The notes beneath the pieces are model-generated. The model saw only the letters and a list, made by a program, of their open reading frames with translations. It was not told the origin of the DNA and did no database searches. The position numbers and the translations under genes are program-made. From contig CADBGE010000001.1 of NCBI GenBank assembly GCA_902794075.1, positions 276,477 to 340,476 of the forward strand: 64,000 bases of DNA. Direction: 5' to 3'. Positions 20,560 through 64,000 of the stretch are shown piece after piece (position 1 is the first letter of the stretch; every line of letters starts with the position of its first letter). Source of the DNA: an uncultured Erysipelotrichaceae bacterium (GTDB lineage Bacteria; Bacillota_I; Bacilli_A; RF39; UBA660).

Positions 20560-23028
20560 TCACCTTTCATAAATGGTTTTAAATGAATATCTCTCATCAA
20601 TGTCTGAACACAATTCAAGATGAGTTTTATCTTCAGCTATATCATATACTTTATAATACCAATCGCCCAAACATTCAATATTTAATATTTTATACAAAGT
20701 ACCGTAATTGTCTGTAATCAATTGACCAATACAAAACTTTGGTGTGATTTTTAAGGTTTGTTTACTTAGCTCTTTCTTCTCACTGTTCCACTCCCAGCCA
20801 GCTTGAGTCATCTCTTCAAAAAGCAGGTCACGTTGTTCTTTTGTTGCTGGAATTAAATCATTTGAGTTAATTATATTTCCATTTTCAAAATCTGCATAAA
20901 AGAAGCTATCATCATAACGACAATGCAAGAAACAATAAGAATGGTCATTACAACTGCCACCATCAGAATGATGACCTATACTTTGGAATATTCCAATAGT
21001 CCCATCTGATTTGTCAGCAACCACATCTCCATCTCTAGCGTCAGAGATTGTCCATTTGTGCCATTTATGTTCACTATCAAACGAAATGTCATAAAATAAA
21101 CCATTTTCATCAGATACAACATATCCTTTATCAATCATGTTGAACAAAGTAGTGTCATCAGACGAACATCTGATTTCCTCAACACGGCGGACAATTTTCC
21201 CAAACGAATCTTCTGTAACAATCCATTCACCAACATTGAACTTAGGCTCAAATTTATTCAATTCTTTCTTCTCATTGTCCCATTCCCAACCAGCTTCTTT
21301 CATTTTTTGGAATAATAGTTCACGTTGTTCTTTGGTTGCGGGATGCGTTTTTTCATTTTTATGTTTTACTGTGAAATATTGAAAACCTCCGTTATTCACT
21401 AAAGAACAAGAAGACATCCAATCAAAATCATAACATTTGTCGAATATACCGATGTTTCCGTATGCATCTACAAGCGCATCGCCGTGTTTTGCGTCATCGA
21501 TTGACCAAAGATGATAAATATTAACATCATCACTACCAATATAACCACCATTTGTAAGGTCATACCCGTACTCATGATTATTGAGGCTTTCGCTACAATT
21601 TTTAATTTGATAGGCTAACCCCGTAACTTCATTAACAACCCAATCACCATTATGGAACTTTGGTTTGACTTTCTTCAATTCTTTCTTCTTATTGTCATAT
21701 TCATATCCTTTTTCTTTCATCTTTGTAAACAACAGGTGATGCTGTTCTTTGGTGGCGGGATGTAAATTGGCTGTCCATGTTTTAGAATAATACGGTACTT
21801 CTTCCTGAAATGCTAATTTTCCATTTTTAAATGTGTTACCATATCCCTCAACACACGGCATACTATATAATCCTTTTACACCTTTATTATGATATTTCTT
21901 GAAAATTATAATTTTTTCCCAGGAATCATCACCTTCATGCCAATTTATAGAAAGGATATCACCTTCCTTCGCGTCAGCGATTTCCCACAATTTGAAATTA
22001 TCATACAAATCTTTAACGATTGCTATGTGGCACCCATATTCATTTTGTAAGCACCCTTCTTGTGCACAATAATACGCAGTATTCTTATCAAAAGTAACAC
22101 CTTTACCAAAGAAGTCTTTAATACATTGATACCAATTTCCAACATGAAACTTTGACTCAACTTTATCAGAAGACTTCTGCTTCATGTTTATTGGTGGAAA
22201 TTCATAATTATCTTGATCTTTAATGGCAATTAACTCATTAGTGCAATGATAATATTCATTATCAATAGACACAACTACAGGCATACCGTCTGTATAACCA
22301 TTAGCAGCCTCACGCCATGTTCTCATTGTGTCACCTTCATGAAACTTCGGTTCAACTTTGTCAGCAGGCTTTACACAATTCTGATCATCAACCTTTTCTT
22401 CTTTGACTGCTTCAAGTGCTGATTTGCCTTGTGGTTTCTCACTTTGCTTTTCAATATTACCATATTTTTCTTGCAATTTTTTAGCAATACGTTCGGTATC
22501 TGGATTATCAAGATAATTACCAATACCATCTTTTTCAGTGAGAACCATATCAACAATATATTTCCAAATACGTAAGTCTGAAAAATTGGATTTATTTTTA
22601 CTTTGCTTGTCAATCCAGCAGTCATATTCCGCTAGTATCTCGTCAGATGTTTTGCCCTTAACAGGAGTATAAAATCCATTAAATGCAAGAACAACATCAC
22701 CTTGCTTCAGTGCTTGTTTAACAGCATTTTCAATCATTGTACCTGCTACTGGTCTAAAGACATATTCATTGTTTGAATCCTGTTTTTCAAGCCAAGTTAT
22801 CCATTTTAATATTTTTTCAGCTCCTTCTTTTGTTACGCATCTTGTATTTTTGAAATGCGTGATAAGTTCTTTCCTTATCTTCTCATCCTCACTTTTGAGT
22901 TCGGGAAATACATATTCTCCTATTTCTATTGAACTTGTAGTAGCATTATCCATTGTTATAATTTCTTTCATTTTAGAAATTGCCTCATCATAGCGTTTGG
23001 CTTTATCTTTTATTGATAACTCTTTCAT
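20560..23028 (-). CDS. large modular repeat-family protein
   Basis: 822 aa. N-terminal AKRYDEAISKM...FPELKSEDEKIRK...WLEKQ module, then at least four beta-rich units (KFH.GD..., W.I.DA..GD.L) alternating with three near-identical helices (H/I)PATKEQ..LLF..M...G(W/Y)E(W/Y)(D/N)...KEL. Confidence 0.65.
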   Translation of the reverse strand: MKELSIKDKAKRYDEAISKMKEIITMDNATTSSIEIGEYVFPELKSEDEKIRKELITHFKNTRCVTKEGAEKILKWITWLEKQDSNNEYVFRPVAGTMIENAVKQALKQGDVVLAFNGFYTPVKGKTSDEILAEYDCWIDKQSKNKSNFSDLRIWKYIVDMVLTEKDGIGNYLDNPDTERIAKKLQEKYGNIEKQSEKPQGKSALEAVKEEKVDDQNCVKPADKVEPKFHEGDTMRTWREAANGYTDGMPVVVSIDNEYYHCTNELIAIKDQDNYEFPPINMKQKSSDKVESKFHVGNWYQCIKDFFGKGVTFDKNTAYYCAQEGCLQNEYGCHIAIVKDLYDNFKLWEIADAKEGDILSINWHEGDDSWEKIIIFKKYHNKGVKGLYSMPCVEGYGNTFKNGKLAFQEEVPYYSKTWTANLHPATKEQHHLLFTKMKEKGYEYDNKKKELKKVKPKFHNGDWVVNEVTGLAYQIKNCSESLNNHEYGYDLTNGGYIGSDDVNIYHLWSIDDAKHGDALVDAYGNIGIFDKCYDFDWMSSCSLVNNGGFQYFTVKHKNEKTHPATKEQRELLFQKMKEAGWEWDNEKKELNKFEPKFNVGEWIVTEDSFGKIVRRVEEIRCSSDDTTLFNMIDKGYVVSDENGLFYDISFDSEHKWHKWTISDARDGDVVADKSDGTIGIFQSIGHHSDGGSCNDHSYCFLHCRYDDSFFYADFENGNIINSNDLIPATKEQRDLLFEEMTQAGWEWNSEKKELSKQTLKITPKFCIGQLITDNYGTLYKILNIECLGDWYYKVYDIAEDKTHLELCSDIDERYSFKTIYER

Positions 23029-36981: not shown

Positions 36982-38607
36982 ATGAAGAACATTGATGAAT
37001 ATATAATAGAACAAGAATTTAATGACAACTTTTTAATAGAAGAAGGTTTTCTTTCATGGATAGCCAAACTTGGAAAAAAATTCTGGAATTGGTTAACAAG
37101 TAAAAATTATAAGTCAGATGATTTGGATTGGTCTCTTTATAATGACAAAGGAAAACGTCTAAAAATGAAGTGGTATGATATAAGCAATGATCATTTGACA
37201 TCAATGTTCAACGGAAAGAATGGATTAGAAGAACAGTTCATTAATATTATAAAAACATTAAAAAAATACAACAAGTTCAGTAAACATATACAAGGACGAA
37301 ACGCGATAAACATAAATAAGATTCCTCCTATAGTAATATTATATACAACTAATAAAAAATTCATATATTCATTACTTAAAGGTTCATATAAAAATGTATA
37401 TAACAAATATGAGAACAAGATTCATAACATTCAAAATCCTGTAATGATATTGTCAATAGAAATAGCAAGAGATAATGACAATAGTATAGAAAGAATTTGG
37501 GATGATTATATATATTCAGAAATAACAGATGCATTCTTGGATTCATATGATATTGTTTTCTTTGATGTAAACAACATAAATAAACTAAAAAAATATTTAA
37601 AGGATGAATGGGGAATTTCTAATTCGTTTCCTATTGCTGATGGAATAGAAGAATGGGAAGACATTAGTGATGAGATCGAAGATGAAGAAGATGACTCAAC
37701 TGAAGAAGATGATTCAGCAAAAGAAGATGATTCAACAAAAGAAGATGATTCAAACAATGGTTCAGAAAAAGCTCCAGACCCAGATGATGGTTCAGTAAAA
37801 ATTCATTCAGAAGATGATAAAAATATTAATCACACAATAGTTTTCTTTGATGAGAAAAAAGAAAAGGTAGCAGAATCAAACATTATAATATATAATAAAA
37901 AAACAAAGGATATATTTGAAGATATACTTGAAGGCATGCCTATAGATAACAAAGGATACTATAATCTATTGATGACTGATTTAGAAATTTCTGATAAATA
38001 TAGTGAATCAGACTATAGAAATGTAATATCTGATTTTATAATACCAGTAATATTTGAAAAGTGCACACATATTATAAAAGAAATAAATGAAAAAGAATCA
38101 ACAGCAAAGCAAATAAAAGTATATATAAAATTAGATGATGAAAAATATGAAAAGCACATAAAGGCATTAAGTGCACTTTCAAAGTCAAAGAAGATAAAAG
38201 AATCTATAAAAAAGATATTTATAATAATAGGCTCAACTACAGAAAATTTAATGGCCGGAGAAAAGAAAGCCGAAAAGACAGAAATAAAAGAATCACTTGA
38301 CATTGACAATTTATTTTGGATGCTTGACACATGGTTCACAAATAATGAACAGGAACGTTCAACATTTATGAGCATTATTGACAATTGTATAATAAAAAGA
38401 ACATATACTAAGAATGATCTTGCTAAAATATGTGATAATATAAACTTTGAAATAAGACCGTTTATCAATTTTCTATGTAAAGACGCTGTTGTATCAGACA
38501 ATAATTCTGAAGACTATAGCATTGATTATTATTATGAACTAAAAAAAGTAATTGATGCACTAATATCTAATAAAGCAACAAATAATAAATATGTTCGTTT
38601 TTCATAA
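36982..38607 (+). CDS. hypothetical protein with acidic low-complexity repeat and CTS-like leader
   Basis: 541 aa, the only plus-strand gene in this stretch. The N-terminus is MKNIDEYIIE. The central repeat is EEDDSTEEDDSAKEDDSTKEDDS. Confidence 0.6.
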   Translation: MKNIDEYIIEQEFNDNFLIEEGFLSWIAKLGKKFWNWLTSKNYKSDDLDWSLYNDKGKRLKMKWYDISNDHLTSMFNGKNGLEEQFINIIKTLKKYNKFSKHIQGRNAININKIPPIVILYTTNKKFIYSLLKGSYKNVYNKYENKIHNIQNPVMILSIEIARDNDNSIERIWDDYIYSEITDAFLDSYDIVFFDVNNINKLKKYLKDEWGISNSFPIADGIEEWEDISDEIEDEEDDSTEEDDSAKEDDSTKEDDSNNGSEKAPDPDDGSVKIHSEDDKNINHTIVFFDEKKEKVAESNIIIYNKKTKDIFEDILEGMPIDNKGYYNLLMTDLEISDKYSESDYRNVISDFIIPVIFEKCTHIIKEINEKESTAKQIKVYIKLDDEKYEKHIKALSALSKSKKIKESIKKIFIIIGSTTENLMAGEKKAEKTEIKESLDIDNLFWMLDTWFTNNEQERSTFMSIIDNCIIKRTYTKNDLAKICDNINFEIRPFINFLCKDAVVSDNNSEDYSIDYYYELKKVIDALISNKATNNKYVRFS

Positions 38608-47150: not shown

Positions 47151-47159
47151 TTATATTTG

Positions 47160-47231
47160 CAGGTCGTGAAGGAATCAAACCTCCATCTTCGGGTTTGGAG
47201 TCCGACATAATAATCATTATACCAACGACCT
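47160..47231 (-). tRNA. tRNA-Trp(CCA)
   Basis: Manual cloverleaf: acceptor AGGTCGT/ACGACCT, anticodon arm TCGGA-CTCCAAA-CCCGA (A31-C39 mismatch), T arm GGAGG-TTTGATT-CCTTC, G73. Confidence 0.7.
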
Positions 47232-47239
47232 ATTTTTTG

Positions 47240-47315
47240 AGTCCCAGACAGGATTCGAACCTGTGATGAATACGATTTTGCAGATCGTCGCCTTCGTCCT
47301 CTCAGCCACTGAGAC
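47240..47315 (-). tRNA. tRNA-Cys(GCA)
   Basis: Acceptor GTCTCAG/CTGGGAC, anticodon arm ACGAT-CTGCAAA-ATCGT, T arm ACAGG-TTCGAAT-CCTGT, and the U73 discriminator expected for Cys. Confidence 0.75.
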
Positions 47316-47331
47316 TTTTTATAAAATCTTG

Positions 47332-47404
47332 GGAGTTATACGGGAATCGCACCCGTGACAACAGAACCACAATCTGTTATGTTAACTACTACACTAATAA
47401 CTCC
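47332..47404 (-). tRNA. tRNA-His(GTG)
   Basis: Acceptor GAGTTAT/ATAACTC, an encoded G-1 opposite C73 (His identity feature), anticodon arm ACAGA-TTGTGGT-TCTGT, T arm ACGGG-TGCGATT-CCCGT. Confidence 0.75.
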
Positions 47405-47413
47405 ATATATTTG

Positions 47414-47486
47414 TCTTTCTACAAGGATTCGAACCCTGACCATGAAATTCGTAGTTTCGTATGCTAATCCATTACACCATAGAAAG
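47414..47486 (-). tRNA. tRNA-Arg(ACG)
   Basis: Acceptor CTTTCTA/TAGAAAG, anticodon loop CTACGAA, T arm CAGGG-TTCGAAT-CCTTG, A73. Confidence 0.75.
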
Positions 47487-47747: not shown

Positions 47748-48263
47748 TTAGAACATGAATGATTGTGCCTTAGGATTTGTTCTAATGAAAGCATCACATA
47801 AAAACTTTACAAATTCATTTACATTGTTCAATTTAATGTAATGCCGTTGTGATGATTTGTTGCTAACCAATGTGCCAACATTTTCAGGCAGTCTATCTAT
47901 GAAAAACTTATAAAATCTATCATTGTCTTTCTTATAAGCAAAATCATATAATACTTCAATCACATCATCGGAATCATTTTCATCATACATAAATTTAGGA
48001 TATCTAATCTGTATTGATGATGTAATCCAATTTGAATTTTGTGGTCCAGCCTTTTCAAAATCTTTAGAATTTATATATAATATATCAAAATGCACACTGT
48101 CAATTTGAGGTAGTAATACAGACATATTTGAAATATTTTTTTCTTTTATGTAATCATTAATCATTGAAGCAATCTTAAAGAAATCTTGCTTAGTTTTCAA
48201 CATTGTAGTTCCTTCATTAAACATTTTTTCAGAACCGTTTAAATATTCTTGTAAACTTTTCAT
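47748..48263 (-). CDS. hypothetical protein with CTS-like leader
   Basis: 171 aa with N-terminus MKSLQEYLNG. Confidence 0.55.
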   Translation of the reverse strand: MKSLQEYLNGSEKMFNEGTTMLKTKQDFFKIASMINDYIKEKNISNMSVLLPQIDSVHFDILYINSKDFEKAGPQNSNWITSSIQIRYPKFMYDENDSDDVIEVLYDFAYKKDNDRFYKFFIDRLPENVGTLVSNKSSQRHYIKLNNVNEFVKFLCDAFIRTNPKAQSFMF

Positions 48264-49152: not shown

Positions 49153-50184
49153 TTAAATGTCACCACTTAACTTTTTTACAGTGTATTCGATTGTTCTTTT
49201 TAGTCCTTCATTAATGTCAACTTCAGGTGTCCAATTCAAAAGTTCATTGGCTCTAGTATTGTCACATTGTGAATACTTATTTACCTCATGATCAAGAATA
49301 TTTCTAGATATCTTATATTCTCCTTCATATAGTTCAGGATATTTATCCCAATACTTTGAACTATCATTATATACCGCATCAATATTCGTATTCATAATAT
49401 TTTTTGCAATGTCATATAATTCTCTTACGCTGTATGAAGTATTTGAACTACAGTTTATTACATTAAATCCACTCAATGTTCGTGCACGATAAACAAGTTC
49501 AAGAAGATCATCTATATAAATATAATCACGGGCCTGTTTACCGTCACTGAAGAAGTTTGGAGTTCTGTCATAATATAGTTCACGAATCATATATCCAACA
49601 AACGGAGGCTGCTTTCTAAGACAATCAATATGAGGTCCATATACATTTGCAAATCTTATGCATGTTACATTCATTCCGTAAGTATCGCAAAATGACTGCG
49701 CAAATCGTTCAGCACAATACTTCGTATTTGGATATATTAGTGTAGGTAGATTATATTCATTGATGTCATCTTCTTTAGTTGGGAAGTCAACGACATTTTC
49801 ATACATTGCATTTGTTGATGCTTGTACAACACTATAAACATTATGACGTCTGCACAACTCAAGAACTTTCACAAGTCCATTTACATTTACATCAACTGCT
49901 TCTGCTGGATTACATTGACAATCAGGAAGCGGAGCAATTCCAGCAATATTGAACACACATTCTATTCTATTGTCTTCAAATAATTGTTCAAACTCTTTAC
50001 TGCGAATATCCATTACATATAGAATCTCATTTAAGTCAACGTCATCAAAAATTAGATTATCTTCATGACCATAACTCATATTGTCAACAAGAATAAGATC
50101 ATATCCAAGCTTATATAACTTATATGCAAGTTGTCCACCAATAAAACCTGCAGCTCCAGTAATTAAAATTATTTCTCTGTCCAT
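49153..50184 (-). CDS. NAD-dependent nucleotide-sugar epimerase/dehydratase (extended SDR)
   Basis: 343 aa with Rossmann ILITGAAGFIGGQL (TGxxGxxG) and catalytic YPNTKYCAE (YxxxK). Confidence 0.75.
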   Translation of the reverse strand: MDREIILITGAAGFIGGQLAYKLYKLGYDLILVDNMSYGHEDNLIFDDVDLNEILYVMDIRSKEFEQLFEDNRIECVFNIAGIAPLPDCQCNPAEAVDVNVNGLVKVLELCRRHNVYSVVQASTNAMYENVVDFPTKEDDINEYNLPTLIYPNTKYCAERFAQSFCDTYGMNVTCIRFANVYGPHIDCLRKQPPFVGYMIRELYYDRTPNFFSDGKQARDYIYIDDLLELVYRARTLSGFNVINCSSNTSYSVRELYDIAKNIMNTNIDAVYNDSSKYWDKYPELYEGEYKISRNILDHEVNKYSQCDNTRANELLNWTPEVDINEGLKRTIEYTVKKLSGDI

Positions 50185-50211
50185 TTTTTATAATATATAT
50201 TAAAGATTATT

Positions 50212-50892
50212 TCATTCACTAAATTTCAGTACTTGTTCTGTTCTATACATTTCGCCATTTCTTAGTATATCATAATATATGACATTTGAAATATATAGCT
50301 TATCATATTCTTTTACGCATTCACAAAGGTCAATGAACTTATTTATGTCATTAAAATAATATCCGCCTGCACAAAATTCAGAACTAATCACACGTTTCTC
50401 AATTATGTTTAACACAACATCATCAGATGTAGTTGATACATAACTTTTATTAGAAGGATTTATTTCAATTACATCTTCAAGTTTATATGTATATACTGTA
50501 TTTTCATTATTTAGCTCGGCAATATTAAAACTTGCATCGGCATCTTTGATGAACAATCCATATCTACTGTATGGTATCTGATTTACTGTCTGAAGAATAG
50601 TATCAACAACATTTCTTGTTTCATTAACAACAATGACATGCGTCTTATCAACAAAACTTTCATTATTAAGTTGAATTTCAAGCATATTCTTAATATGATA
50701 TATGTCATCAATCTTCTTATTTACTACAATATATATCTTATTGAAATCATCCAATGGAAGATCTAACATATTGTTTATGATATTCATCCGTCCAAAATCA
50801 TTTAATTTAAAAATCTCTGGAATGAATTGTTCATATATTTCATTATATGCAGCAGCAGGAATTACAAGTATTTTATTATTGTTCATAGTCAA
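50212..50892 (-). CDS. nucleotide-diphospho-sugar transferase-fold protein lacking the NTP-binding glycine loop
   Basis: 226 aa, collinear with the N-terminal domain of 51792-53177 (VVDTI vs AIETI, KDADAS vs LDCDLV, AGGYYF vs AGVYGF, YISNVIY vs YVSYIYN). It has LVIPAAAYNE instead of GGLGTR. Confidence 0.45.
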   Translation of the reverse strand: MTMNNNKILVIPAAAYNEIYEQFIPEIFKLNDFGRMNIINNMLDLPLDDFNKIYIVVNKKIDDIYHIKNMLEIQLNNESFVDKTHVIVVNETRNVVDTILQTVNQIPYSRYGLFIKDADASFNIAELNNENTVYTYKLEDVIEINPSNKSYVSTTSDDVVLNIIEKRVISSEFCAGGYYFNDINKFIDLCECVKEYDKLYISNVIYYDILRNGEMYRTEQVLKFSE

Positions 50893-50897
50893 AAAGA

Positions 50898-51788
50898 TTA
50901 AAATTTTTCATTAAGAATGTTATTAATTGTGTCAATTAAGTATATAGTAACAGAATCCTTTTTAGCATATTGTACTATTCGTAAGAAGTTCATAAGTTGG
51001 AATATTGCATATGAATCTTTGTAAAATGAATACTTACTAAAGTTTATGTCAAGTTGTTCATCAATGTATTTGCAAATCATATCATAACGAGTCTTATCAT
51101 ATTCCTTGCTATTATACATTAATGTACTCCACTTATATTTAGTATCCTGTCTAAGTTTCACAATGTCGATAATCGGAGATTCAATGAAAGAATCTAAAAA
51201 ATCAATCAAAGCAAATTCATTATCCCTAAATATGATGTTTGAGAATGTCAGATCGCCATGACACTTCCCAACATAAAAGTTTTCAAACTTCATAACAGGC
51301 TTAAATATTTCATCACATCGTTCAATGATTTTCATTATTGATGAATAATACGGAGAATCATTTTTATATATATTCATCATATTCTTTTTAACTGACATCC
51401 ATTTCTTATAAAGTTCATCAGTTTCATATTCAGCAACGCATATACTTGATTCAATTTCATTACGAACATATTCGCAGATAGTTGATATAAATTTATCAAT
51501 AATCATCTTATCTGCATACTCAAAGAATGAAACAAAATTTTTTCCATATACATATTCCATTATGCCATGATATTCGCCAGGCCATGTTTCATCAGAATTT
51601 ATAATCTTTGGCACAACAATATTCTTTGTTATGTTTGTTTTTGCCGCAGATAACTGTTTATCAAACTGCGCCTTAAGTCTTGGAATATATTTTTCATTCT
51701 TTGTGTACTTATCAATAACAAGAATGTCTTTATTCTTTTTAATGTCTATGTAACATCCTGAATGTCCTTCTACTTCAATTTTTTTCAT
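50898..51788 (-). CDS. APH/choline-kinase-family small-molecule kinase
   Basis: 296 aa. GKCHGDLTFSNIIF...ALIDFLD is Brenner's HGDxxxxN catalytic loop plus the D-F-x-D metal-binding motif of the aminoglycoside / choline / anomeric sugar kinase family. Confidence 0.7.
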   Translation of the reverse strand: MKKIEVEGHSGCYIDIKKNKDILVIDKYTKNEKYIPRLKAQFDKQLSAAKTNITKNIVVPKIINSDETWPGEYHGIMEYVYGKNFVSFFEYADKMIIDKFISTICEYVRNEIESSICVAEYETDELYKKWMSVKKNMMNIYKNDSPYYSSIMKIIERCDEIFKPVMKFENFYVGKCHGDLTFSNIIFRDNEFALIDFLDSFIESPIIDIVKLRQDTKYKWSTLMYNSKEYDKTRYDMICKYIDEQLDINFSKYSFYKDSYAIFQLMNFLRIVQYAKKDSVTIYLIDTINNILNEKF

Positions 51789-51791
51789 AAT

Positions 51792-53177
51792 TTATTCTAA
51801 TGATATTTGGTTGTTCTTTATAATTTTTTGAAATTCGTCCTTATCTATAAACTTTGAAAGTCCATTTATACTGTTTACATTTATAATGTTCTTTACTTCA
51901 GCTTTATATGCTGCAAGGAATCCTACATCACTATCTTCATATACATATATATTGTTTGATGATATGAAAGGATATTGCATTATTATTTTTTGATATACCT
52001 CAGAATTTGGTTTTCCATTTTTAACATTATCACCAGTTATAATATAATCAAATAAATCATCAATTTCAAAATATTTTAATACATTATCAACATTTTTCTT
52101 TGATGCAGTTGTCGCAAGACATACAATATTTCCATTTTGTTTTGCATGATATAGATATGAATATAGATTTTTATTAATAGATATTTTGTCAAAGTATTTC
52201 TTATATACACGAGATTTTATTTTCTTTACTTCATTTAGTTTAGATTCATCAAGCTTGAGTGCATTAAGAAGTTCATTGATTCGTAATCCAAAATTACTAT
52301 AATAATTATCTTCAGTTAATTCGTAATCATATATCTTTTTAAATGTTTCCTTATATGCTAAATAATTTGCGTTTTTAGTATCAATAAGTGTTCCATCAAG
52401 ATCAGATATATATAATTTCTTAAACTTATTATTAGACGATATGAAATTCATAATCTCGTCACTAGTTCCAATTGAAGTATATTCATCAAGATGTGACAAT
52501 ATAATTTTCGCACCATCATTAATCATTAGATTATATATATAAGATACATAATATTCGTTTGCTTCAAAGTCAGAAACGTTTTTGTCAAGAATCATCTTTG
52601 CATATTTCTTAAACGACTTTCCATTAGAAAATCCATACACACCAGCCAACGCATGATTAGAAATTGGACATTTTTCTGCAGTACGTTTGACTAAATTATT
52701 TTCATTTATTTCAGCATAACTATACTTGTGAAGATTAGAATCAAATGACAATAGAAATCCATCAATGGCTTCATCAGCATCAATTCGTTCAATTATATCA
52801 TATAGATCATTACTTTTAAATACAAGATCACAATCAAGAACTACACATATATCATCATCATCAATAAATGATTCAGCACACATTATAGTCTCAATTGCGC
52901 CTTTAGTTAAATAATCTATTTGAACTAAATTAAATTCATCAGCAAAATTCCAACCAATCTGATTTACTTTTTTTATATAAAAATCGTTCATAATCTCATT
53001 ACGAACAATCATTGTTAACTTTGTTCTATAACTATTCTTAATTTCATTAAATCCACTAAGAGCATATTCAAATAAATATTTCTCAAACAAATTAATAAAA
53101 GGTTTAGGAGAATTATACATATCGGATGTTCGCGTTCCTAAACCGCCCATTGGCATTATAATATGTAAATTTTTCAT
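51792..53177 (-). CDS. bifunctional sugar-phosphate nucleotidyltransferase / HAD-superfamily hydrolase or mutase
   Basis: 461 aa. N-terminal IIMPMGGLGTR (GxGTR nucleotidyltransferase loop). C-terminal half carries ISDLDGTLIDT (HAD motif I DxDxT) and YEDSDVGFLAA (HAD motif IV). Confidence 0.7.
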   Translation of the reverse strand: MKNLHIIMPMGGLGTRTSDMYNSPKPFINLFEKYLFEYALSGFNEIKNSYRTKLTMIVRNEIMNDFYIKKVNQIGWNFADEFNLVQIDYLTKGAIETIMCAESFIDDDDICVVLDCDLVFKSNDLYDIIERIDADEAIDGFLLSFDSNLHKYSYAEINENNLVKRTAEKCPISNHALAGVYGFSNGKSFKKYAKMILDKNVSDFEANEYYVSYIYNLMINDGAKIILSHLDEYTSIGTSDEIMNFISSNNKFKKLYISDLDGTLIDTKNANYLAYKETFKKIYDYELTEDNYYSNFGLRINELLNALKLDESKLNEVKKIKSRVYKKYFDKISINKNLYSYLYHAKQNGNIVCLATTASKKNVDNVLKYFEIDDLFDYIITGDNVKNGKPNSEVYQKIIMQYPFISSNNIYVYEDSDVGFLAAYKAEVKNIINVNSINGLSKFIDKDEFQKIIKNNQISLE

Positions 53178-53282
53178 ATATTTAAATTGATCATCTTTAT
53201 ATTTTTAATATATAAAAAGTCCTTACCAAAATTTAAATTTTGATAAGTTTATCATAGCATAAATAAAATTATAATAAAAGAT

Positions 53283-54893
53283 ATGAGAACATTTGATGAG
53301 TTCTTAAAAAATCATTATAAATCTAAAAATGTAAGCATTCTTAGTGAGGATGATTCACAAAAAAATAGTGATAATATAAATATAGATAATAATGTATCTG
53401 AAGAAATTGTTGTAGCAAATGATGTAAAGGATACTGAAAATATAGTTGATAAAATGGATAAAAAATCTGGATATTTTTTCAACAATATTATATTTTTCAC
53501 AAATAGTAGAGATCCCTCAAAAAATAAGACGTTAAAAAATCTTGAAGATGCTGTAAAAGGAACTGATATTACTATATATACGTTTGTTGCTGAAGAAGTT
53601 GATTATAAGGCAACAGAAAAAAGTATTAGTATAAAAGACAGTAAAACAAAGTTAAAGATCGATAAACAGTCAAACATTGATACTATTGTTATTGTTCGTC
53701 TTGGAGCACAAGATTCAGAACTTTGTGTTGAATGCATAAAAGAATTACAACAGTGGGGATTATTTGTTCTTAATCCAATTCAGAATGCAAAGAAAGCTTC
53801 TAATAAATATTCATCAGCTGTTCTTATGGAAAGATATGGAATTCCACAGCCAAAGTTTACATTGCTTACGAAGAATGACATTGAAAAAGGTGATGAAAGT
53901 CTTTCAAAAAAATTAAAGAATATTTATTCGGACATTGGAGATGATGAGAAAGCCGATAAGAAAAAGGAATATGTTGTAAAATTGTTAAATGGTCATGGTG
54001 GTACAGGTGTATTTATGTGCAACGGAAAGACAATATTAAGTATCCTTCAAGCTATGTTTGCTGTTGATGAAGAACTTGAACTTCTCTGTCAGAAGAAAGA
54101 AGAAGCTGACGGAGGAGACATACGGGTTCATGTTCTTACAATGAGAACAAAGCAGATGATACTTGCTCAGATGAAGCGAGTTAAGATATCTGGAGATTTC
54201 CGTTCAAATGTTTCTTTAGGTGCAACCGCAGAAAAAGTTGAATTAACTAAAGAACAAGAAGATATTGCATTGAAGGTTGCAAAGATTTCTGGTATGCCGT
54301 GGTGTGCAGTTGACATAATGCCATTGGTTAAAGATTCTAATCCAGAAATTGGCGATAATGTTGTACTTGAATATAATTCATCCCCAGGTACAGAAGGAAT
54401 ATCTGATGTAATTGATGAAAACTTTGTTAAGATTCTTCTTGATAATATAAATGACATTAATGAACTTGTTCTTTATCCAAAATCTATTGGATACATAGAG
54501 AATATTACATTTAAGTTCAATGATGATGATGCACCGGTTACAATGGAAGCAAAACTTGATACAGGTAACGGTGCATATGCTTCAACAATAGGTTGTGAAA
54601 AGGTTGAAGTTAAAGATGATGAGGTTGTTGCCACACTTAATGACAAGGAATATCATTTTAAGAAACATGGATCATCAAATCCTCGAGTAGGTCAGGTAAC
54701 AGAATCAAGAACTACAGTTATTGTTCCTGAGATTCAGATTGGAACTCGTAAATTGCTTGATGTTGAATTTGCTCTTGTTGACAATAGAAAGAAGTCAACA
54801 AAGATACTACTTAATAGAGATATATTATCTAAGATGGCTTACATGATTAACCCAGCTCAGAAAAAAACATTAGATGAAAATAAAAAAATATGA
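53283..54893 (+). CDS. RimK-type ATP-grasp ligase fused to a C-terminal retropepsin-like (Zn_protease/DUF785-like) domain, with CTS-like leader
   Basis: 536 aa. LNGHGGTGVF, GGDIRVHVL, SGDFRSNVSLGATAE and CAVDIM...LEYNSSPG parallel E. coli RimK blocks as I recall them. C-terminal MEAKLDTGNGAYASTIG resembles the AKxDTGA signature of the RimK-associated protease-like domain. The N-terminus is MRTFDEFLKN. Confidence 0.7.
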   Translation: MRTFDEFLKNHYKSKNVSILSEDDSQKNSDNINIDNNVSEEIVVANDVKDTENIVDKMDKKSGYFFNNIIFFTNSRDPSKNKTLKNLEDAVKGTDITIYTFVAEEVDYKATEKSISIKDSKTKLKIDKQSNIDTIVIVRLGAQDSELCVECIKELQQWGLFVLNPIQNAKKASNKYSSAVLMERYGIPQPKFTLLTKNDIEKGDESLSKKLKNIYSDIGDDEKADKKKEYVVKLLNGHGGTGVFMCNGKTILSILQAMFAVDEELELLCQKKEEADGGDIRVHVLTMRTKQMILAQMKRVKISGDFRSNVSLGATAEKVELTKEQEDIALKVAKISGMPWCAVDIMPLVKDSNPEIGDNVVLEYNSSPGTEGISDVIDENFVKILLDNINDINELVLYPKSIGYIENITFKFNDDDAPVTMEAKLDTGNGAYASTIGCEKVEVKDDEVVATLNDKEYHFKKHGSSNPRVGQVTESRTTVIVPEIQIGTRKLLDVEFALVDNRKKSTKILLNRDILSKMAYMINPAQKKTLDENKKI

Positions 54894-55690
54894 AGTCGTT
54901 AAAACATTACATAAAATCTGATAAATCATATTTAATTTCATTATCTGAAAAACTGTTAATCAATAAGAACTATGACATTTATAATTATCGTCCAACAACG
55001 AGAGAAGAACTAAAGGCTTCAATACAAGAACACTATAATAATGATATATATGATTTAAATGATATAGATGTATCTAATATAACTGACTTTAGTTCACTTT
55101 TTTACAGAGATAAAAATACAGGAAACAAAGATTTTAACATTAGTGATTGGAATGTAAGCAATGGTATGAATTTTTCTTTGATGTTTTATGAATGTAAAGA
55201 ATTTAATTTTGATATAAGTAAATGGAATGTTAGTAATGGCATTGATTTTTCACATATGTTTTCTGAATGTCACAAATTTAATTGTAACTTGAGTGATTGG
55301 GACGTAAGTAATGGCAAGAATTTTTCATATATGTTTAATGAGTGTGAAAACTTTAATCAAAACTTAAAATATTGGAATGTAAGTAAATGTAAAGATTTTT
55401 CTGGTATGTTCAAAAAGTGCTATAAATTTAATTCAAATTTAAGTAAGTGGAATGTAAGTAATGGAGAAGATTTTTCTTCAATGTTTTATAATTGTCAAGA
55501 ATTTAATTCTAACTTAAGTAAATGGGATGTGAGTAGTGGAGAAGATTTTGCATGGATGTTTGGATATTGTAAAAAATTTAATTCAGACATTAGTAAATGG
55601 AATATATCTGATAAATCAATTTTATATATTAATCAGATGTTTTATGGCTGTCCTATAGATGATAAATATAAGCCAAAGGGAGTACAATGA
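54890..55690 (+). CDS. DUF285 / BspA-type repeat protein with CTS-like leader
   Basis: 266 aa with seven tandem units of about 25 aa of F..MF..C..FN..(I/L)S.W(N/D)VS.G..; 4-nt overlap with the upstream gene. The N-terminus is MKSLKHYIKS. Confidence 0.7.
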   Translation: MKSLKHYIKSDKSYLISLSEKLLINKNYDIYNYRPTTREELKASIQEHYNNDIYDLNDIDVSNITDFSSLFYRDKNTGNKDFNISDWNVSNGMNFSLMFYECKEFNFDISKWNVSNGIDFSHMFSECHKFNCNLSDWDVSNGKNFSYMFNECENFNQNLKYWNVSKCKDFSGMFKKCYKFNSNLSKWNVSNGEDFSSMFYNCQEFNSNLSKWDVSSGEDFAWMFGYCKKFNSDISKWNISDKSILYINQMFYGCPIDDKYKPKGVQ

Positions 55691-55765
55691 AGTCATTAAG
55701 AAACTATAATACAGTGATATGAACTAATTAATGATTATCTTATAATTTAAATTTTATTTATGTTG

Positions 55766-55791
55766 TAGCAGGATGACATCCTGCTATTTTT
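55766..55791 (+). terminator. rho-independent terminator
   Basis: tagcagga-tgaca-tcctgcta hairpin (55766-55786) followed by ttttt. Confidence 0.7.
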
Positions 55792-55871
55792 ATATATTTG
55801 TATGAACTATCCTCTTGTTAATAATTTCAAAATATTTTTAATATATAATAAATTTTAATAGAAATCAACAC

Positions 55872-56747
55872 ATGCCTACTAAAAAAATTAAAAATTATGA
55901 CATATACTTTGGCGGATATGTTCAACGAAGTAAAAGCATTAAGAAAATTTCATTTGATAATTCATCTTTAATATTATATAAAGGCGACGAATACGATTTA
56001 AATTTTACTGTATATCCTAATGATGCTTTTTATAGTGAAATTGAATGGGCATCAAGCGATGAAAAAGTCGTTAGTATTGATGAAGACGGACATATTGTTG
56101 CCTTAAAAGGTGGTAAAGCTACTATATCTATTACAATAAACAATATTGTAGCAAGATGCTTTATTACAGTTCGTGAAGTAATTCATTTTGAAGATCCATT
56201 AGTAAAAAGTATTCTTGTTCGCAATTATGATTTTGATGGTGATGGAGAGATTTCATATATAGAGGCTGCACGTGTAACATCTATACCATTTCCAATGTTT
56301 ACAGGCATGCCAATACAATCATTTGATGAACTTTCATATTTTAAAAATGTTAAAACAATTGCACCACATGCTTTTGATTCTTGTGATAAGTTAACAAGCA
56401 TATCATTTCCTGCAGGATTAGAAAAAATAAATAAAAATGCATTTTCATATTGTAATTCATTAACTGAAATTATGATTACACCAAATGTGAAAAGTATTGG
56501 TACAAACGCTTTTTCTGATTGTGCAAATTTAAAGGTTGCTTATATAAATAGTAATATTCCCCCAAAGAATGGTAACAAAATTCTTGACAGATGTCCAAAT
56601 TTAGATAGAATAATTGTTCCAGGCGAATATGTTGATGATTACCTTAATGCTATAAATTGGGGTATGCTTAATGATGAAGAATATTTATACTATTCATATA
56701 TAATTATACAATGTTTTGATTATACGTTTGACTTCTTTTTATCATGA
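55872..56747 (+). CDS. Big_2 Ig-like domain plus BspA-type LRR_5 protein
   Basis: 291 aa. N-terminal SLILYKGDEYDLNFTVYPNDA...WASSDEKVVSIDEDGHIVALKGGKATISI is Big_2-like. The C-terminal half has AFDSCDKLTSISFPAGLEKINKNAFSYCNSLTEIMITPNVKSIGTNAFSDC repeats. Confidence 0.65.
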   Translation: MPTKKIKNYDIYFGGYVQRSKSIKKISFDNSSLILYKGDEYDLNFTVYPNDAFYSEIEWASSDEKVVSIDEDGHIVALKGGKATISITINNIVARCFITVREVIHFEDPLVKSILVRNYDFDGDGEISYIEAARVTSIPFPMFTGMPIQSFDELSYFKNVKTIAPHAFDSCDKLTSISFPAGLEKINKNAFSYCNSLTEIMITPNVKSIGTNAFSDCANLKVAYINSNIPPKNGNKILDRCPNLDRIIVPGEYVDDYLNAINWGMLNDEEYLYYSYIIIQCFDYTFDFFLS

Positions 56748-60851: not shown

Positions 60852-60879
60852 AAAGGAGAGTACTTAAGTACTCTCCTTT
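60852..60879. terminator. bidirectional rho-independent terminator between convergent genes
   Basis: Perfect 28-bp palindrome aaaggagagtactt/aagtactctccttt, flanked by an A run on the left and T-rich sequence on the right. Confidence 0.7.
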
Positions 60880-60908: not shown

Positions 60909-62504
60909 TTAATATTTTGCATTTCTATTTGCACGTCTTGCCTGATTCCTCATTTGGTCAGATATCATCTTTCTTACATCCTCCTCTGTAAAGTCAGGAT
61001 CATCCGCACAAGTTTCAAAAATCTTTGCACAAATTGCAAACGTACGAATAGAAATTTCCATGTCTTCACCATTTTGAGACATTTCCTTAAGGTAATCATA
61101 TGCCTTAATCTTTGAACGACTTGACAAATGCTCGGGATCAATGGCAGGCATAATTCGTTTTACAATATACAACAAATCCTCATTTGTAAAATTAATGTCC
61201 ATCACAAAAGAACGACCTCTAAGAGCAGTGTCCAATGCCCCAACATTATAATTTGTGATAATAATTATTGAACCATTATAGAACATCTTTTTAGGAATTG
61301 GGTCTCCATCATCATCAAGCAACCTTCCTGCAACGCCGTACATAACGAGACGTCCCTCATCATCAGTTGTTGAATCCAATGCACCTTTAAGAATGTTGAT
61401 ACAATCCTCTGGTGCGCGAGGTCCAACGAGAGAATCAGCGTCATCAATAACAACAATGTCACCCTTTGCACGATATTGATAAAGTGCCATATAAAGTTGT
61501 CGTGGAGAACAACGACCTTTGATTGTGTACAAATTTGTTCCTTCTTTATATCCTGATGCTTTAAGTTGTTGCATTACGTTATATGTTTTACCTACACCAG
61601 GAGCACCACAAAGAATAACAGATGGATTAATTCCTCTTGCGACCATACTTACATATTTACGCATTTTCTTAAAAACAAATTCAGGGTCCTCTCGTTCAGC
61701 ATCAAGTTCATCTTGTTGCTTTTTCATTATCTCATCAATTTCTGCAATAACCTGAACATTTTTCTTTATTGCGGCCTTTAACTCAGGAAGTGTATTTGCA
61801 CCGCCCTTTACAGCATTCCAAACTTCTTTAACTTCATCAAGTAATCTTTTATATGTTTCCTTTGCCTTAGCTGAATCATTTTTGTTTAATCTTGCATTAT
61901 CTTTTTCACTTGACTTCATTTTTGCAAAATCTCTTGCACTTGAAATGTTTTTGGATTCGATCATAAATGATTTTTTAATTAACGATTCAGATAAATTATT
62001 TGTTATATAATATGGTAACGCACCAACAAAAAATTCAAATGATTTGCATTCTTTAACAAATATTTCCTTGCCTAATTTTTTGATTTCATTTGTAGTTATG
62101 TCAATGCTATCTGAATTAATAATTGTCCATATAACAGGAAGAAAATATACTATGCTAGACCCAAGTGTGTATATAGAAAGATCAGTCTTAACAGGTTTAT
62201 CTGAAAACAATATATTGTAGTTACTAAAAAAGTCTATAGAATATACTTCATTTGATTCTGATGATCTTAAGAAATTCAAACTAAACATTTTTATATTTGT
62301 ATTATTGACAAGAAAATACTTTGTGATCATATATTCATTATCGACTTTCGTTTTTTCTGTGCCAACAATATGTGTTATGTGCTTTTTAGTATGCTTATTT
62401 AAACTATTGCATATTAACGAAAAAACTTTATCCATATCATCATTCTTAAAGCCTTCTCTAATGATAGTTTTTCGTTTTTCTATAAATTCCTTATATGATA
62501 TCAT
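60909..62504 (-). CDS. AAA+ ATPase with large unknown N-terminal domain and CTS-like leader
   Basis: 531 aa with Walker A LCGAPGVGKTY, Walker B DIVVIDDADSL and N-terminus MISYKEFIEK. Confidence 0.7.
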   Translation of the reverse strand: MISYKEFIEKRKTIIREGFKNDDMDKVFSLICNSLNKHTKKHITHIVGTEKTKVDNEYMITKYFLVNNTNIKMFSLNFLRSSESNEVYSIDFFSNYNILFSDKPVKTDLSIYTLGSSIVYFLPVIWTIINSDSIDITTNEIKKLGKEIFVKECKSFEFFVGALPYYITNNLSESLIKKSFMIESKNISSARDFAKMKSSEKDNARLNKNDSAKAKETYKRLLDEVKEVWNAVKGGANTLPELKAAIKKNVQVIAEIDEIMKKQQDELDAEREDPEFVFKKMRKYVSMVARGINPSVILCGAPGVGKTYNVMQQLKASGYKEGTNLYTIKGRCSPRQLYMALYQYRAKGDIVVIDDADSLVGPRAPEDCINILKGALDSTTDDEGRLVMYGVAGRLLDDDGDPIPKKMFYNGSIIIITNYNVGALDTALRGRSFVMDINFTNEDLLYIVKRIMPAIDPEHLSSRSKIKAYDYLKEMSQNGEDMEISIRTFAICAKIFETCADDPDFTEEDVRKMISDQMRNQARRANRNAKY

Positions 62505-62627: not shown

Positions 62628-64000
62628 TTATCCACATCTTGACCAACCACAGTCAATGCAATGTATGCAACCATTCTCACGAATAAGCTTACCACCACAG
62701 TCTGGACATTTTTCTCCTTCAAGAACTTCATCCTTTTCATACTTACGAAGTATACGAACCATTGCTGATGTAAAGCTTGTGATATTGTCATCAACTTTCT
62801 GAGCAGTCTTAATAATATATTTTAGATTTGCTCCAGTACGCATTAGCATTGATGAATATAATGCTGTCGCAAGTTCCTCGGTTGTAAGCTTAGAACTGAT
62901 GTTCTCAATAACTATATTTTCAGATTCAAACTTATATACTGACTTCTTTATCTTAGTAATAGTTCCTTTATGCTGAGGTATTATTTTATTATTTTCAGAT
63001 CTATATACAAATATTTCATACGGCTTATTCTTATATAATCCAACCATTACATAGAATACTTCACCCTTAACCTTTGTTGAATAAAAATCTGCAGGAAGTG
63101 TCTTAGGACGTTTAGGAGCGTTCACATAACTTTCAAATTTGTCATCTTCCTTTTTCTGTTCTTTCTTTATCATAATACCTTCACGAGAACCGTCACGATA
63201 TACTGTGATGCCCTTTAGTCCGTTTCTCCAAGCTTCCATGTAAATGTTACTTACTTCTTCCTCAGTCACATCATTTGGAAGATTGACAGTAGAACTGATT
63301 GAATGTGTAATAAGATACTTCTGAACAATTCCTTGAACTTCAACACGTTTTTGCCAATCAATGTCCTGAGCACATGAACCATACCATGGTGACTGCTTAT
63401 AGATCTCTTCCCATTCCTTTTCTGTGAGTTCATCAAACTTTGAGAGCAGTTCAGGCATATTTGCTTCAGCCCATTTCTTTAGCTGTGGATGAACAACGAC
63501 AAATTCTGTAAAGTTAATGCCAAGCTTGTCAGTGTAGTCAATCCTATCTTCTGATGTAACGCATTTGCGACGACGAACATAATATGGCATAAATACTGGC
63601 TCAATTCCTGATGAAGTCTGAGTTAACATTGAGATTGTTCCTGTAGGTCCTGCTGTTGTGAATGAAATATTACGACGACCATTGTTCTTCATCTGCTCGT
63701 ATCGTCCAGGATATTCACTGTATATGAATCTAAACCATTCATTGAGATATGGCGTACCCCATTCATCTTTTATATTATTGTTTGTTTCAAGTTCTTTATC
63801 ATAATCTGGAAAAGTTCCACGTTCAAGAGCCATGTCAGTCTGACAGTCAAGAACAGCACTCATCATAAGCTTACAAACCTTCTCAATGAATTCATTTGAT
63901 TCTTTAGTACAAAACTTATATCCCATTGCTGCACACATATCTGACATTGCAGTAAATTCTAATCCGCAACGACGACCATTTTTGCCTTTTTCTAAAATTC
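62628..64000 (-). CDS. nrdJ: ribonucleotide reductase large subunit, class II (NrdJ-like), N-terminus outside the window
   Basis: TTAGPTGTISMLTQTSSGIEPVF is the conserved RNR active-site finger region. The C-terminal CPDCGGKL...CIHCIDCGWSRCG zinc-ribbon/redox tail is typical of NrdJ. The frame stays open upstream of the track Met at 63947 to the window edge (...GRRCGLEFTAMSDM). Confidence 0.7.
   Translation of the reverse strand, partial: ILEKGKNGRRCGLEFTAMSDMCAAMGYKFCTKESNEFIEKVCKLMMSAVLDCQTDMALERGTFPDYDKELETNNNIKDEWGTPYLNEWFRFIYSEYPGRYEQMKNNGRRNISFTTAGPTGTISMLTQTSSGIEPVFMPYYVRRRKCVTSEDRIDYTDKLGINFTEFVVVHPQLKKWAEANMPELLSKFDELTEKEWEEIYKQSPWYGSCAQDIDWQKRVEVQGIVQKYLITHSISSTVNLPNDVTEEEVSNIYMEAWRNGLKGITVYRDGSREGIMIKKEQKKEDDKFESYVNAPKRPKTLPADFYSTKVKGEVFYVMVGLYKNKPYEIFVYRSENNKIIPQHKGTITKIKKSVYKFESENIVIENISSKLTTEELATALYSSMLMRTGANLKYIIKTAQKVDDNITSFTSAMVRILRKYEKDEVLEGEKCPDCGGKLIRENGCIHCIDCGWSRCG

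Follow-up and report, generated by a model that had tools for sequence, protein, structure and literature searches.

The locus described here raised the question whether a large phage encodes, on one polypeptide, an enzyme that attaches glutamate tails to proteins together with one that shortens them, and at which stage of infection such a protein would act. The DNA analysed is a stretch of 64,000 nucleotides (hereafter the window) from contig CADBGE010000001.1, positions 276,477 to 340,476, of an assembly assigned to an uncultured Erysipelotrichaceae bacterium. Its genes for a tail-fibre protein, a baseplate wedge protein, ribonucleotide reductase and a DNA methyltransferase, together with four tRNA genes, show it to be part of a large tailed phage; its GC content is 26–34%. 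The gene in question is an open reading frame (ORF) of 536 amino acids (aa) at 53283..54893 on the forward strand (+), starting with ATG and including a TGA stop codon, and is predicted to encode a RimK-RimB fusion (RimKB). A 99%-identical counterpart (P0001) exists, and homologues in the databases number more than 2,000, of which the top 120 are full-length and at least 66% identical. A sequence-only reading of the window had proposed such a protein, and the ORF as well as every motif quoted there was found in place: SGDFRSN at residues 303–309 (nucleotides 54189–54209), AVDIM at 342–346, LEYNSSPG at 362–369 and AKLDTGNGAYAS at 423–434 (nucleotides 54549–54584). Sequence profiles and structural models support the view that RimKB is a RimK-type ligase fused C-terminally to a retropepsin-like domain of the RimB/PF05618 type. 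Taking all evidence together, we consider it reasonably probable that this protein serves an uncultured jumbo phage as a bifunctional 'writer-eraser' of poly-alpha-L-glutamate, is loaded into the prohead and acts at the start of infection.

The ligase half was readily assigned. Residues 64–391 (53472..54455, +) comprise a complete RimK-type alpha-L-glutamate ligase with an N-domain (approximately residues 64–190) and an ATP-grasp domain (193–387). The Pfam family RimK (PF08443) matched residues 193–387 with an E-value of 8.9e-24 and 84.6 bits against a gathering cut-off of 21, and it was found in all 50 diverse members of the clade sharing this architecture. The best NCBIfam match was rimK_fam (TIGR00768; E 4.5e-32, residues 104–389). 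The closest sequences in the PDB identified by phmmer were RimK of Pseudomonas and of E. coli, and an hhalign comparison of the family profile with E. coli RimK gave 98.7% probability and E 3e-16. A full-length AlphaFold2 (AF2) model with a mean predicted local distance difference test (pLDDT) score of 72.5 was compared with the PDB by Foldseek, and the first 22 matches were RimK structures with target-normalised template-modelling (TM) scores of 0.80–0.84, E-values around 1e-17 and about 330 aligned columns. The runner-up family reached E 4e-13, and PsnB, ArgX/LysX, Ddl and MdnC followed clearly behind. The RimK identity put forward earlier is thus borne out, at a level far beyond chance, by significant matches in Pfam, NCBIfam, phmmer and hhalign.

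The catalytic residues of RimK are retained. According to the hhalign alignment, K100, K141, R189, R211, N213, D248, E260, N262 and R64 of the E. coli enzyme correspond to K175, K233, R281, R307, N309, D344, E363, N365 and R139 of RimKB. These nine residues are invariant in the family, and most of them are invariant across the 50 diverse clade members as well. None of the ATP-grasp catalytic residues is therefore missing; the set consists of K175 and K233 for ATP binding, D344, E363 and N365 for coordination of Mg2+, and R307 and N309 in the FRSN loop. In the crystal structure of Pseudomonas RimK the poly-glutamate chain is contacted by S7, R8, S14, R64, S68, R189 and N262 (PMC10092738). Three of these contacts, R64, R189 and N262, were mapped onto R139, R281 and N365 by hhalign, the N-terminal contacts lying beyond the range of that alignment; MAFFT placed an S-R-D motif (S75, R76) and T83 opposite them, in a register that is uncertain. 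An insertion of about 30 residues at positions 196–228 distinguishes RimKB from RimK.

One element of the sequence-only reading had to be corrected here. It had placed some 140 aa without relation to RimK ahead of the ligase; the additional part amounts to approximately 63 aa, a helix and a disordered linker, because residues 64–190 are the N-domain that precedes the ATP-grasp domain in RimK itself. This assignment follows from family conservation, which begins at residue 64, from the MptN and rimK_fam alignments, which begin at residues 81 and 104, respectively, and from Foldseek matches spanning whole RimK chains.

The substrate of the ligase is less easily read from such comparisons. RimKB scored 111.5 bits against TIGR00768, below the curated cut-off of 143.4, and 61.8 bits against the S6--L-glutamate ligase equivalog NF007764, far under its cut-off of 331. 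Since these scores stay under the curated NCBIfam cut-offs, the protein is, by sequence, a diverged relative and not an orthologue of RimK or the S6 ligase. Moreover, H215 and R216, which close the active site of the E. coli enzyme, are replaced by S311 and L312. These observations count against the favoured reading. One alternative is a small-molecule ligase, in which alpha-glutamate would be attached to a cofactor of the pterin or F420 type, as by MptN and CofF, or free poly-alpha-glutamate alone would be made, with the C-terminal domain setting the size of the polymer. The score of the MptN profile (104.5 bits, residues 81–389) is close to that of rimK_fam and CofF matches as well (40 bits), RimK together with RimB yields free poly-alpha-glutamate in vitro (PMC11957791), and no protein substrate was found near the gene. 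A related contig of 397 kb (ena:ERZ27280333:k141_837951, L003) additionally carries, about 9 kb from its RimKB gene and beside ThyX, a CofE-like F420_ligase of the gamma-glutamyl ligase family (PF01996, 229-1347), of which no counterpart was seen at the corresponding position of the window; that phage thus has two enzymes that ligate glutamate. On the other hand, the equivalog cut-offs of 350 for MptN and 300 for CofF are missed by a wide margin, and in sequence as well as in structure RimK stands out clearly as the closest match. The characterised relative of the fused partner, RimB, cuts poly-glutamate on proteins; to our knowledge, MptN and CofF have no partner of the RimB type. This alternative, free polymer included, seems quite improbable to us.

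The C-terminal domain was identified via bridging homologues, profiles and fold. In the window protein itself, its last 142 aa gave no Pfam match even at E<=10, a result that speaks against a peptidase, and combined PHROGs and Pfam scans of this part and of the N-terminal 192 aa yielded nothing useful. The profile comparison that had been suggested as a check therefore turned out positive for RimK and negative for Zn_protease/DUF785 in the window protein. Homologues from cultured phages provided the bridge. By tblastn, proteins of the Yersinia phages YerA41 and GN1 and of the Pelagibacter phage Mosig aligned without a break from residue ~125 to residue ~527, with E-values of 5e-32 for YerA41_066 and 9e-43 for Mosig_05. 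At their C-termini, the YerA41 and Mosig proteins passed the gathering score of 27 for PF05618 (Zn_protease) with 29.0 and 28.0 bits, respectively. A profile that included these two sequences matched PDB entry 2PMA (DUF785) over the whole domain with E 8.3e-7, and entries 9G58 and 9G59 with approximately 3e-4. A control profile built from the family of the window protein alone retained the same top match and alignment, at an E-value of only 0.066, which weakens this line of evidence. PF05618 was also matched directly (E<=0.01) by 31 of the 50 diverse proteins of the same architecture.

Structural comparison led to the same family. An AF2 model of the C-terminal domain, calculated from an alignment of the family only, had a pLDDT of 78.9, and the six top matches in a Foldseek search of the PDB were 9G59, 2PMA and 9G58, with E-values from 5e-6 to 1e-4 and TM scores reaching 0.69. 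After these PF05618 structures came dozens of proteases of HIV-1 and HIV-2. The best matches in BFVD were stand-alone phage proteins with TM 0.7, one of them annotated as 'ATP-dependant zinc protease'. Fold, profiles and homologues together support the prediction that residues 399–527 (54477..54863, +) form a retropepsin-like half-barrel of the PF05618/RimB type, so that the RimB-like character claimed for the C-terminal 130 aa or so is supported by four independent, if indirect, lines, namely fold search, bridging profile, the YerA41 and Mosig alignments and the PF05618 matches within the clade.

The residues expected of an aspartic peptidase are present in this domain. Its predicted catalytic motif is D426-T-G-N429 (54558..54569, +), which aligns with DTGA of 2pma, 9g58 and 9g59, corresponds to the DTG of retropepsins and lies within a conserved K-L-D426-T-G sequence; in the PF05618/RimB family the catalytic Asp is expected in two hydrophobic residues followed by D-T/S-G-A. 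GRD or GRN is a signature of retropepsins, and a counterpart of this second motif (LLGRD in 2pma) was located in the alignment to 2pma at N511-R-D513 (54813..54821, +). Neither DTGN nor NRD varies within the family, in which conservation of the C-terminal domain equals that of the ligase. Among the 50 diverse clade members, N429 is invariant and the preceding Asp, Thr and Gly are at least 90% conserved, at a mean column identity of 19%. The solved structures of the PF05618/DUF785 family, Legionella Lpg0085 (2PMA) and Pseudomonas RloA and RloA2 (9G58/9G59), are the best structural matches at an identity of only 16–22%; AKLDTG of 2PMA is identical to the sequence in RimKB, and LL(G/N)RD is common to both. 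Lpg0085, RloA and RloA2 are stand-alone proteins with DTGA, the Rlo enzymes being secreted or periplasmic (PMC12239564), whereas RimKB has DTGN.

This asparagine, which takes the place of the usual alanine after DTG throughout the phage clade, counts against an active peptidase, as do the deviating sequences NLD and DRA found instead of NRD in YerA41 and Mosig. The domain might accordingly be inactive as a peptidase and have been kept as an activator of the ligase or as an oligomerisation module, particularly as RimB stimulates the ATPase and poly-glutamate synthesis of RimK with no need of cleavage. Conservation of Asp-Thr-Gly at this level among such highly diverged proteins is, however, the pattern of a catalytic site rather than of a scaffold, and in the bacterial RimBK hybrid the RimB domain is proteolytically active. 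We therefore assign little probability to a domain that has lost its catalytic function.

The activities expected of RimKB can be derived from the Pseudomonas system. The Pseudomonas protein RimB, a retropepsin-like aspartic endopeptidase whose catalytic residue D31 lies in a DTG motif, trims polyglutamylated RpsF; independently of cleavage, it also boosts poly-alpha-glutamate synthesis and ATPase activity of RimK (PMC11957791). D31 corresponds to D426 of RimKB, and Pseudomonas RimK (7QYS, 7QYR) is the best fold match (TM 0.84) with the same residues for ATP, Mg2+ and glutamate contacts. RimKB differs from the RimABK system of Pseudomonas in being encoded by one gene instead of two, and neither RimA nor a cyclic-di-GMP module was seen nearby; a feature likely to be shared is that the partner peptidase sets the tail length produced by the ligase. 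By analogy with this system, the ligase half would use ATP to extend a protein at its acidic C-terminus with alpha-linked glutamates, or would build free poly-alpha-glutamate. The peptidase domain would probably dimerise across the subunits of a RimK oligomer, as the two-Asp active site of such peptidases requires, and shorten the poly-glutamate tails. As it may stimulate the ligase in addition, a single polypeptide could fix the length of the tail.

A precedent for joining the two activities exists in a RimBK hybrid of the opposite order, published in 2025. This protein (Desulfotalea psychrophila DP2392, Q6AKK4; PMC11957791) likewise unites a RimK-type ligase and a RimB-type peptidase in one polypeptide. 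It is bacterial, carries RimB at the N-terminus with a DTGA motif, and experiments showed cleavage of polyglutamylated RpsF by its RimB part; hybrids of this kind occur in 12% of rim-containing genomes, chiefly of Flavobacteriales and Rhodobacterales (PMC11957791). The phage protein differs in having the RimB domain at the C-terminus with DTGN, a leader and a disordered linker, and a peptidase domain beyond detection by Pfam. Neither phage-encoded rim genes nor a C-terminal RimB arrangement are mentioned in that study (PMC11957791, Little et al. 2025), and a broad survey of jumbo phages from 2021 mentions neither RimK nor retropepsin.

We addressed the distribution of this architecture by an exhaustive profile search over 1.84 billion cluster representatives, which returned 174 proteins with this type of C-terminal domain. 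Among the best 150 of these, 67 have the order RimK followed by the domain and none the reverse, the remainder being short proteins or fragments; nearly all of the 150 carry D-[TS]-G-N, and canonical DTGA is confined to the weakest matches. The two distant members that were checked both lie in phage-like surroundings. Pattern scans, which detect close relatives only, identified 13 viral contigs in IMG/VR, mostly of 157–435 kb, and three 'bacterial' contigs of metagenome-assembled genomes (MAGs), one of which is identical to a viral contig of 410,106 bp in IMG/VR. Near-identical and related copies of RimKB were found on metagenomic contigs of up to ~400 kb. The K-to-B order is thus the regular arrangement in a distinct DTGN subclade that occurs in large phages and is represented by at least 60 clusters at 50% identity. 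What is new is this order, the DTGN motif, the spread in large phages and the N-terminal tag; the ligase/peptidase pair and its fusion as such were already known.

Two cultured phages belong to this group. YerA41 gp066 (QSM00767) and Mosig gp05 (QOI68969) have the same RimK-DTGN order at 28–31% identity over ~400 residues and pass the Pfam cut-offs of both RimK and PF05618. Their hosts are Proteobacteria; the phages have genomes of ~140 kb, are unrelated, and their proteins have far shorter leaders than RimKB. The phage records know the homologues only under the names 'putative glutathione synthetase', 'structural protein' and 'putative ribosomal protein modification protein'; their peptidase half went unnoted. 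Additional domains occur in some relatives. In P0189 (631 aa, locus L009 6475-8370), one of the two distant members checked, an N-terminal region resembling 2H-phosphoesterases and Acb1, an inhibitor of the cyclic-oligonucleotide-based anti-phage signalling system (anti-CBASS), precedes the RimK-DTGN unit. Among the 50 clade members, Pfam Acb1 was found in two and a cytidylyltransferase/FAD_syn-like domain in three others. These domains hint that the protein may help to take over the host or to counter its defences; PADLOC gave no match for the window protein or the Acb1-fused relative.

Residues 1–22 (MRTFDEFLKNHYKSKNVSILSE; 53283..53348, +) form a leader that resembles a capsid-targeting sequence (CTS), with a predicted helix at residues 4–11 and a candidate prohead-protease site at I-L-S-E22/D (slash, point of cleavage). 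It is followed by a linker rich in Asp, Glu, Asn and Ser (residues 23–63; 53349..53471, +). In the AF2 model, residues 11–59 are disordered (pLDDT <50) and the fold begins at approximately residue 64; the linker shows no conservation and is hypervariable in length and sequence, leader and linker together measuring 31–93 aa across the RimKB family. The CTS-like leader had been recognised in the sequence-only reading, and its statistics proved to be strong. The leader motif M-[KRQHNI]-x-[FLIY]-x-[EH]-[FY]-[ILM] occurs at the start of five of the 99 ORFs of the window, whereas 0.06 are expected from its internal frequency. When the 362 distinct ORFs of the window and 16 related loci were considered, 39 began with M-x-x-PHI-x-x-[FY]-[ILMF] (PHI, hydrophobic residue), compared to 3.8 expected from N-terminal composition (P ~7e-27). 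Position 2 is Lys or Arg in 35 of these 39, and Glu occupies position 10 in 27 of them but in only 24 of the 323 others. In its pattern, the resulting consensus MK-x-[LI]-x-x-[YF]-I-x-E equals the CTS of phage T4, MKTYQEFIAE, which is removed by the prohead protease and suffices to package foreign proteins (PMC8442874; PMC3012670).

The T4 proteins that carry this sequence, IPI, IPII, IPIII and Alt, likewise share M-K-x-PHI-x-x-[FY]-[IL]-x-E on otherwise unrelated polypeptides, with a Glu-type cleavage motif after it, and Alt is a precedent for a packaged enzyme that modifies the host. A cleavage motif of this type is also found in the RimKB family. The sequence [ILV]-x-E-A is present in 94 of 120 family leaders compared to 9.6+-3.1 in composition-preserving shuffles, a count that overstates independence owing to the kinship of the sequences, although the surroundings of the motif are not conserved. 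Similar PHI-x-E/A sites occur in Mosig (MQVQPFKNYLEE/ATG, that is YLEE/ATG) and in YerA41 (…LLNKFE/AADE), and the propeptides of giant phages are known to be longer than that of T4 and to be cleaved at x-E motifs (PMC5694885). Because the leader shares the T4 CTS pattern and the family leaders are enriched in a motif of the prohead-protease type, we infer loading into the capsid. In the favoured reading, the leader would probably direct RimKB into the prohead and be trimmed there, and the enzyme would be ejected with the DNA and act at the start of infection in the manner of T4 Alt.

Several results weigh against this packaging step. The window protein fits the signature at positions 1–8 and has Asn instead of Glu at position 10; its candidate site ILSE22/DD is weaker than the family consensus, and its closest relatives (P0002-P0007) have no clear site. 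The leader is also longer than that of the T4 proteins, and apart from a distant likeness of the baseplate the window phage is not T4-like. The 473-aa homologue of YerA41 was found in purified particles with LC-MS/MS according to literature data, but the same particle proteome contains polymerases, ribonucleotide reductase and many other enzymes that are possible contaminants. Furthermore, the YerA41 gene is transcribed in the 'middle' class, among genes of nucleotide metabolism, and not late. No head module lies within the 64-kb window, and a prohead protease of the gp21 type did not turn up for this phage, no search having been aimed at one.

An alternative is that the same enzyme remains unpackaged. 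It would then be synthesised in the course of infection as an auxiliary enzyme of the cytoplasm, where it would glutamylate and trim a protein of the host or of the phage. The N-terminal signature would then reflect a context for translation initiation, assembly, localisation or common descent of the 5' ends of the genes. Its distribution lends some weight to this explanation, as the carriers include early-looking proteins encoded on the minus strand and an AAA ATPase. Against it stand the agreement of the signature with the experimentally defined CTS of T4, including the preference for Glu-10, the nearly ten-fold enrichment of [ILV]xE/A in leaders that are otherwise hypervariable, the detection of the YerA41 homologue in particles, and the precedent of packaged enzymes and internal proteins set by T4 Alt and its companions. 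An unpackaged enzyme is possible, and we consider it the less likely explanation.

Signature-bearing ORFs of the window lie at 16005-16832(-), 36982-38607(+), 47748-48263(-), 53283-54893(+), 54890-55690(+) and 60909-62504(-), and others were found in loci L010-L024. Their products are otherwise unrelated and comprise unknown proteins of 541, 275 and 171 aa, a DUF285 protein, the AAA ATPase and RimKB. This set may represent the proteins that are loaded into the capsid or ejected by these jumbo phages. A broader proposal is that jumbo phages of gut and rumen load a suite of unrelated proteins by means of a T4-like signature, including a polyglutamylation 'editor' that would rewrite the acidic C-terminal tail of a host protein, S6 or another, within seconds and before expression of any phage gene; we regard this as an unlikely, if attractive, extension.

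The most speculative step concerns the target, which could be ribosomal protein S6 of the host. Acidic C-termini or poly-glutamate runs, which would mark candidate substrates, were absent from the ORFs of the window, and no conserved one was found near RimKB in 20 related loci, a result unfavourable to the favoured reading. The small conserved proteins located downstream of RimKB in relatives have basic rather than acidic tails. One candidate substrate from YerA41 was also considered, namely the LysW-like protein YerA41_074, as LysW is the substrate of LysX of the RimK family; it was dropped, its C-terminus (…QEYVVL) not being acidic.

Polyglutamylation of ribosomal protein S6 by RimK and RimB is a recently characterised way by which bacteria retune their proteome, and the occurrence of the opposite-order fusion as the standard form in the DTGN subclade of large phages suggests that phages took over this switch. 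If the broader proposal holds, RimKB would be the first injected phage enzyme that works via protein polyglutamylation, host translation would be reprogrammed before any phage gene is expressed, and targeting of the CTS type would extend well beyond T4-like phages. The idea is directly testable, since YerA41 and Mosig can be cultivated. The leader signature may moreover yield a sequence rule that predicts capsid-carried proteins of uncultured jumbo phages. From a practical point of view, enzymes of this predicted activity could serve as compact single-chain tools to make and size poly-alpha-glutamate tails.

The genomic neighbourhood places RimKB at the beginning of a block of rightward genes, which in the window as well as in the 397-kb relative leads into genes for Big_2/leucine-rich-repeat proteins and the baseplate wedge. 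The start codon of the next gene overlaps the stop codon of RimKB (ATGA). This gene (54890..55690, +) encodes a DUF285-repeat protein of 266 aa (Pfam DUF285, E 8e-78) with the leader MKSLKHYI..., and the two are probably co-transcribed. A terminator-like hairpin with a T-run lies 75 nucleotides past the DUF285 gene (55765..55787, +); two such sites were found in 8 kb compared to 1.7 expected by chance, so that the hairpin is weak evidence alone. The second is situated just downstream of the baseplate wedge gene (60852-60879, +). The positions of both hairpins suggest ends of transcription units, the first of which may close a unit of two genes.

DUF285-repeat and Big_2/BspA-type leucine-rich-repeat proteins occupy 54890-56747 (+), between RimKB and the baseplate genes. 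Such repeats of the cell-surface type within a structural block may belong to adhesins or receptor-binding accessories. In several relatives a small conserved protein of 57–79 aa is encoded directly 3' of RimKB (L013 7583-7783, L014 6515-6715, L017 9548-9787, L022 6866-7039, L024 6512-6700). It has a leader, the motif ...F[AT]TP..T.GMGN... and a strongly basic C-terminal tail (KRKKKFKRYKII), and it recalls small basic internal proteins; no copy is present in the window.

Upstream of RimKB, an AT-rich intergenic region of 105 bp (53178..53282) separates the gene from a divergent block on the minus strand and contains no Shine-Dalgarno motif. A promoter scan was uninformative in DNA of 28% GC (68 sites compared to 72 expected). 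The sequence ATAAATA upstream of RimKB resembles a late promoter of T4 and was not counted as evidence. The divergent block (49153-53177, -) encodes proteins of 461 aa (HAD phosphatase domain at the C-terminus), 296 aa (a kinase similar to APH/EcKL), 226 aa and 343 aa; the N-terminal region of the last contains, as read from its sequence, GAAGFIG, a motif that NAD-dependent epimerases typically carry. Genes for HAD and kinase proteins also adjoin RimKB in the 397-kb relative. This sugar-nucleotide block may serve the modification of DNA or of a glycan.

Its position raises the further alternative that RimKB takes part in hypermodification of DNA or of a glycan, for example by attaching an amino acid to a sugar or a modified base. 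A nucleotidyltransferase-HAD gene, the APH/EcKL-like kinase and further enzymes adjoin RimKB on the opposite strand, an arrangement conserved in a relative, and YerA41, which possesses a homologue, bears a thymidine hypermodification of ~1 kDa (PMC9023294). That adduct, however, looks like an oligosaccharide, and the study describing it does not implicate the homologue (PMC9023294); in both YerA41 and Mosig, sugar genes are absent beside the homologue. The poly-glutamate-contact residues specific to RimK and the peptidase partner favour a peptide substrate. We therefore judge a role of RimKB in hypermodification to be very improbable.

Relatives of the phage could be approached only via its baseplate protein, as none of 50,697 phage records was matched when 24 kb of the window were compared with them by Megablast. 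The baseplate protein is 20–28% identical to those of Prevotella Lak megaphages, of uncultured phages of 460–735 kb, of the Tenacibaculum phages PTm1 and pT24 and of the Sphingomonas phage PAU. Related contigs carry the MAG labels Clostridia, Firmicutes and Erysipelotrichales. A Bacillota host, as these labels would imply, was rejected as probably wrong, given that one of the MAG contigs is an IMG/VR viral genome and Shine-Dalgarno motifs are nearly absent: motifs of this kind precede two of the 64 ORFs of at least 100 aa, fewer than the random background of 6%. Such a near-absence is typical of Bacteroidota and of the phages infecting them, and it points towards a Bacteroidota host as the better fit.

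Three further features of the window were noted. Close to its end, the ORF at 62628-63947 (-) encodes 439 aa that correspond to the C-terminal part of the large subunit of ribonucleotide reductase only (PHROG 570-973 of 975; Pfam barrel 292-523 of 523). The corresponding gene of the 397-kb relative encodes 859 aa, and an intron, an intein or a homing element may split or interrupt the gene of the window. In an early-looking leftward block, two ORFs of 458 and 822 aa (4945-6321(-) and 20560-23028(-)) have a similar N-terminal region (…KAK.YDEA…E[YI][IV]FPELK…), which suggests that they are paralogues. The four tRNA genes (Trp-CCA, Cys-GCA, His-GTG and Arg-ACG) are clustered within 330 bp at 47159-47486 (-).

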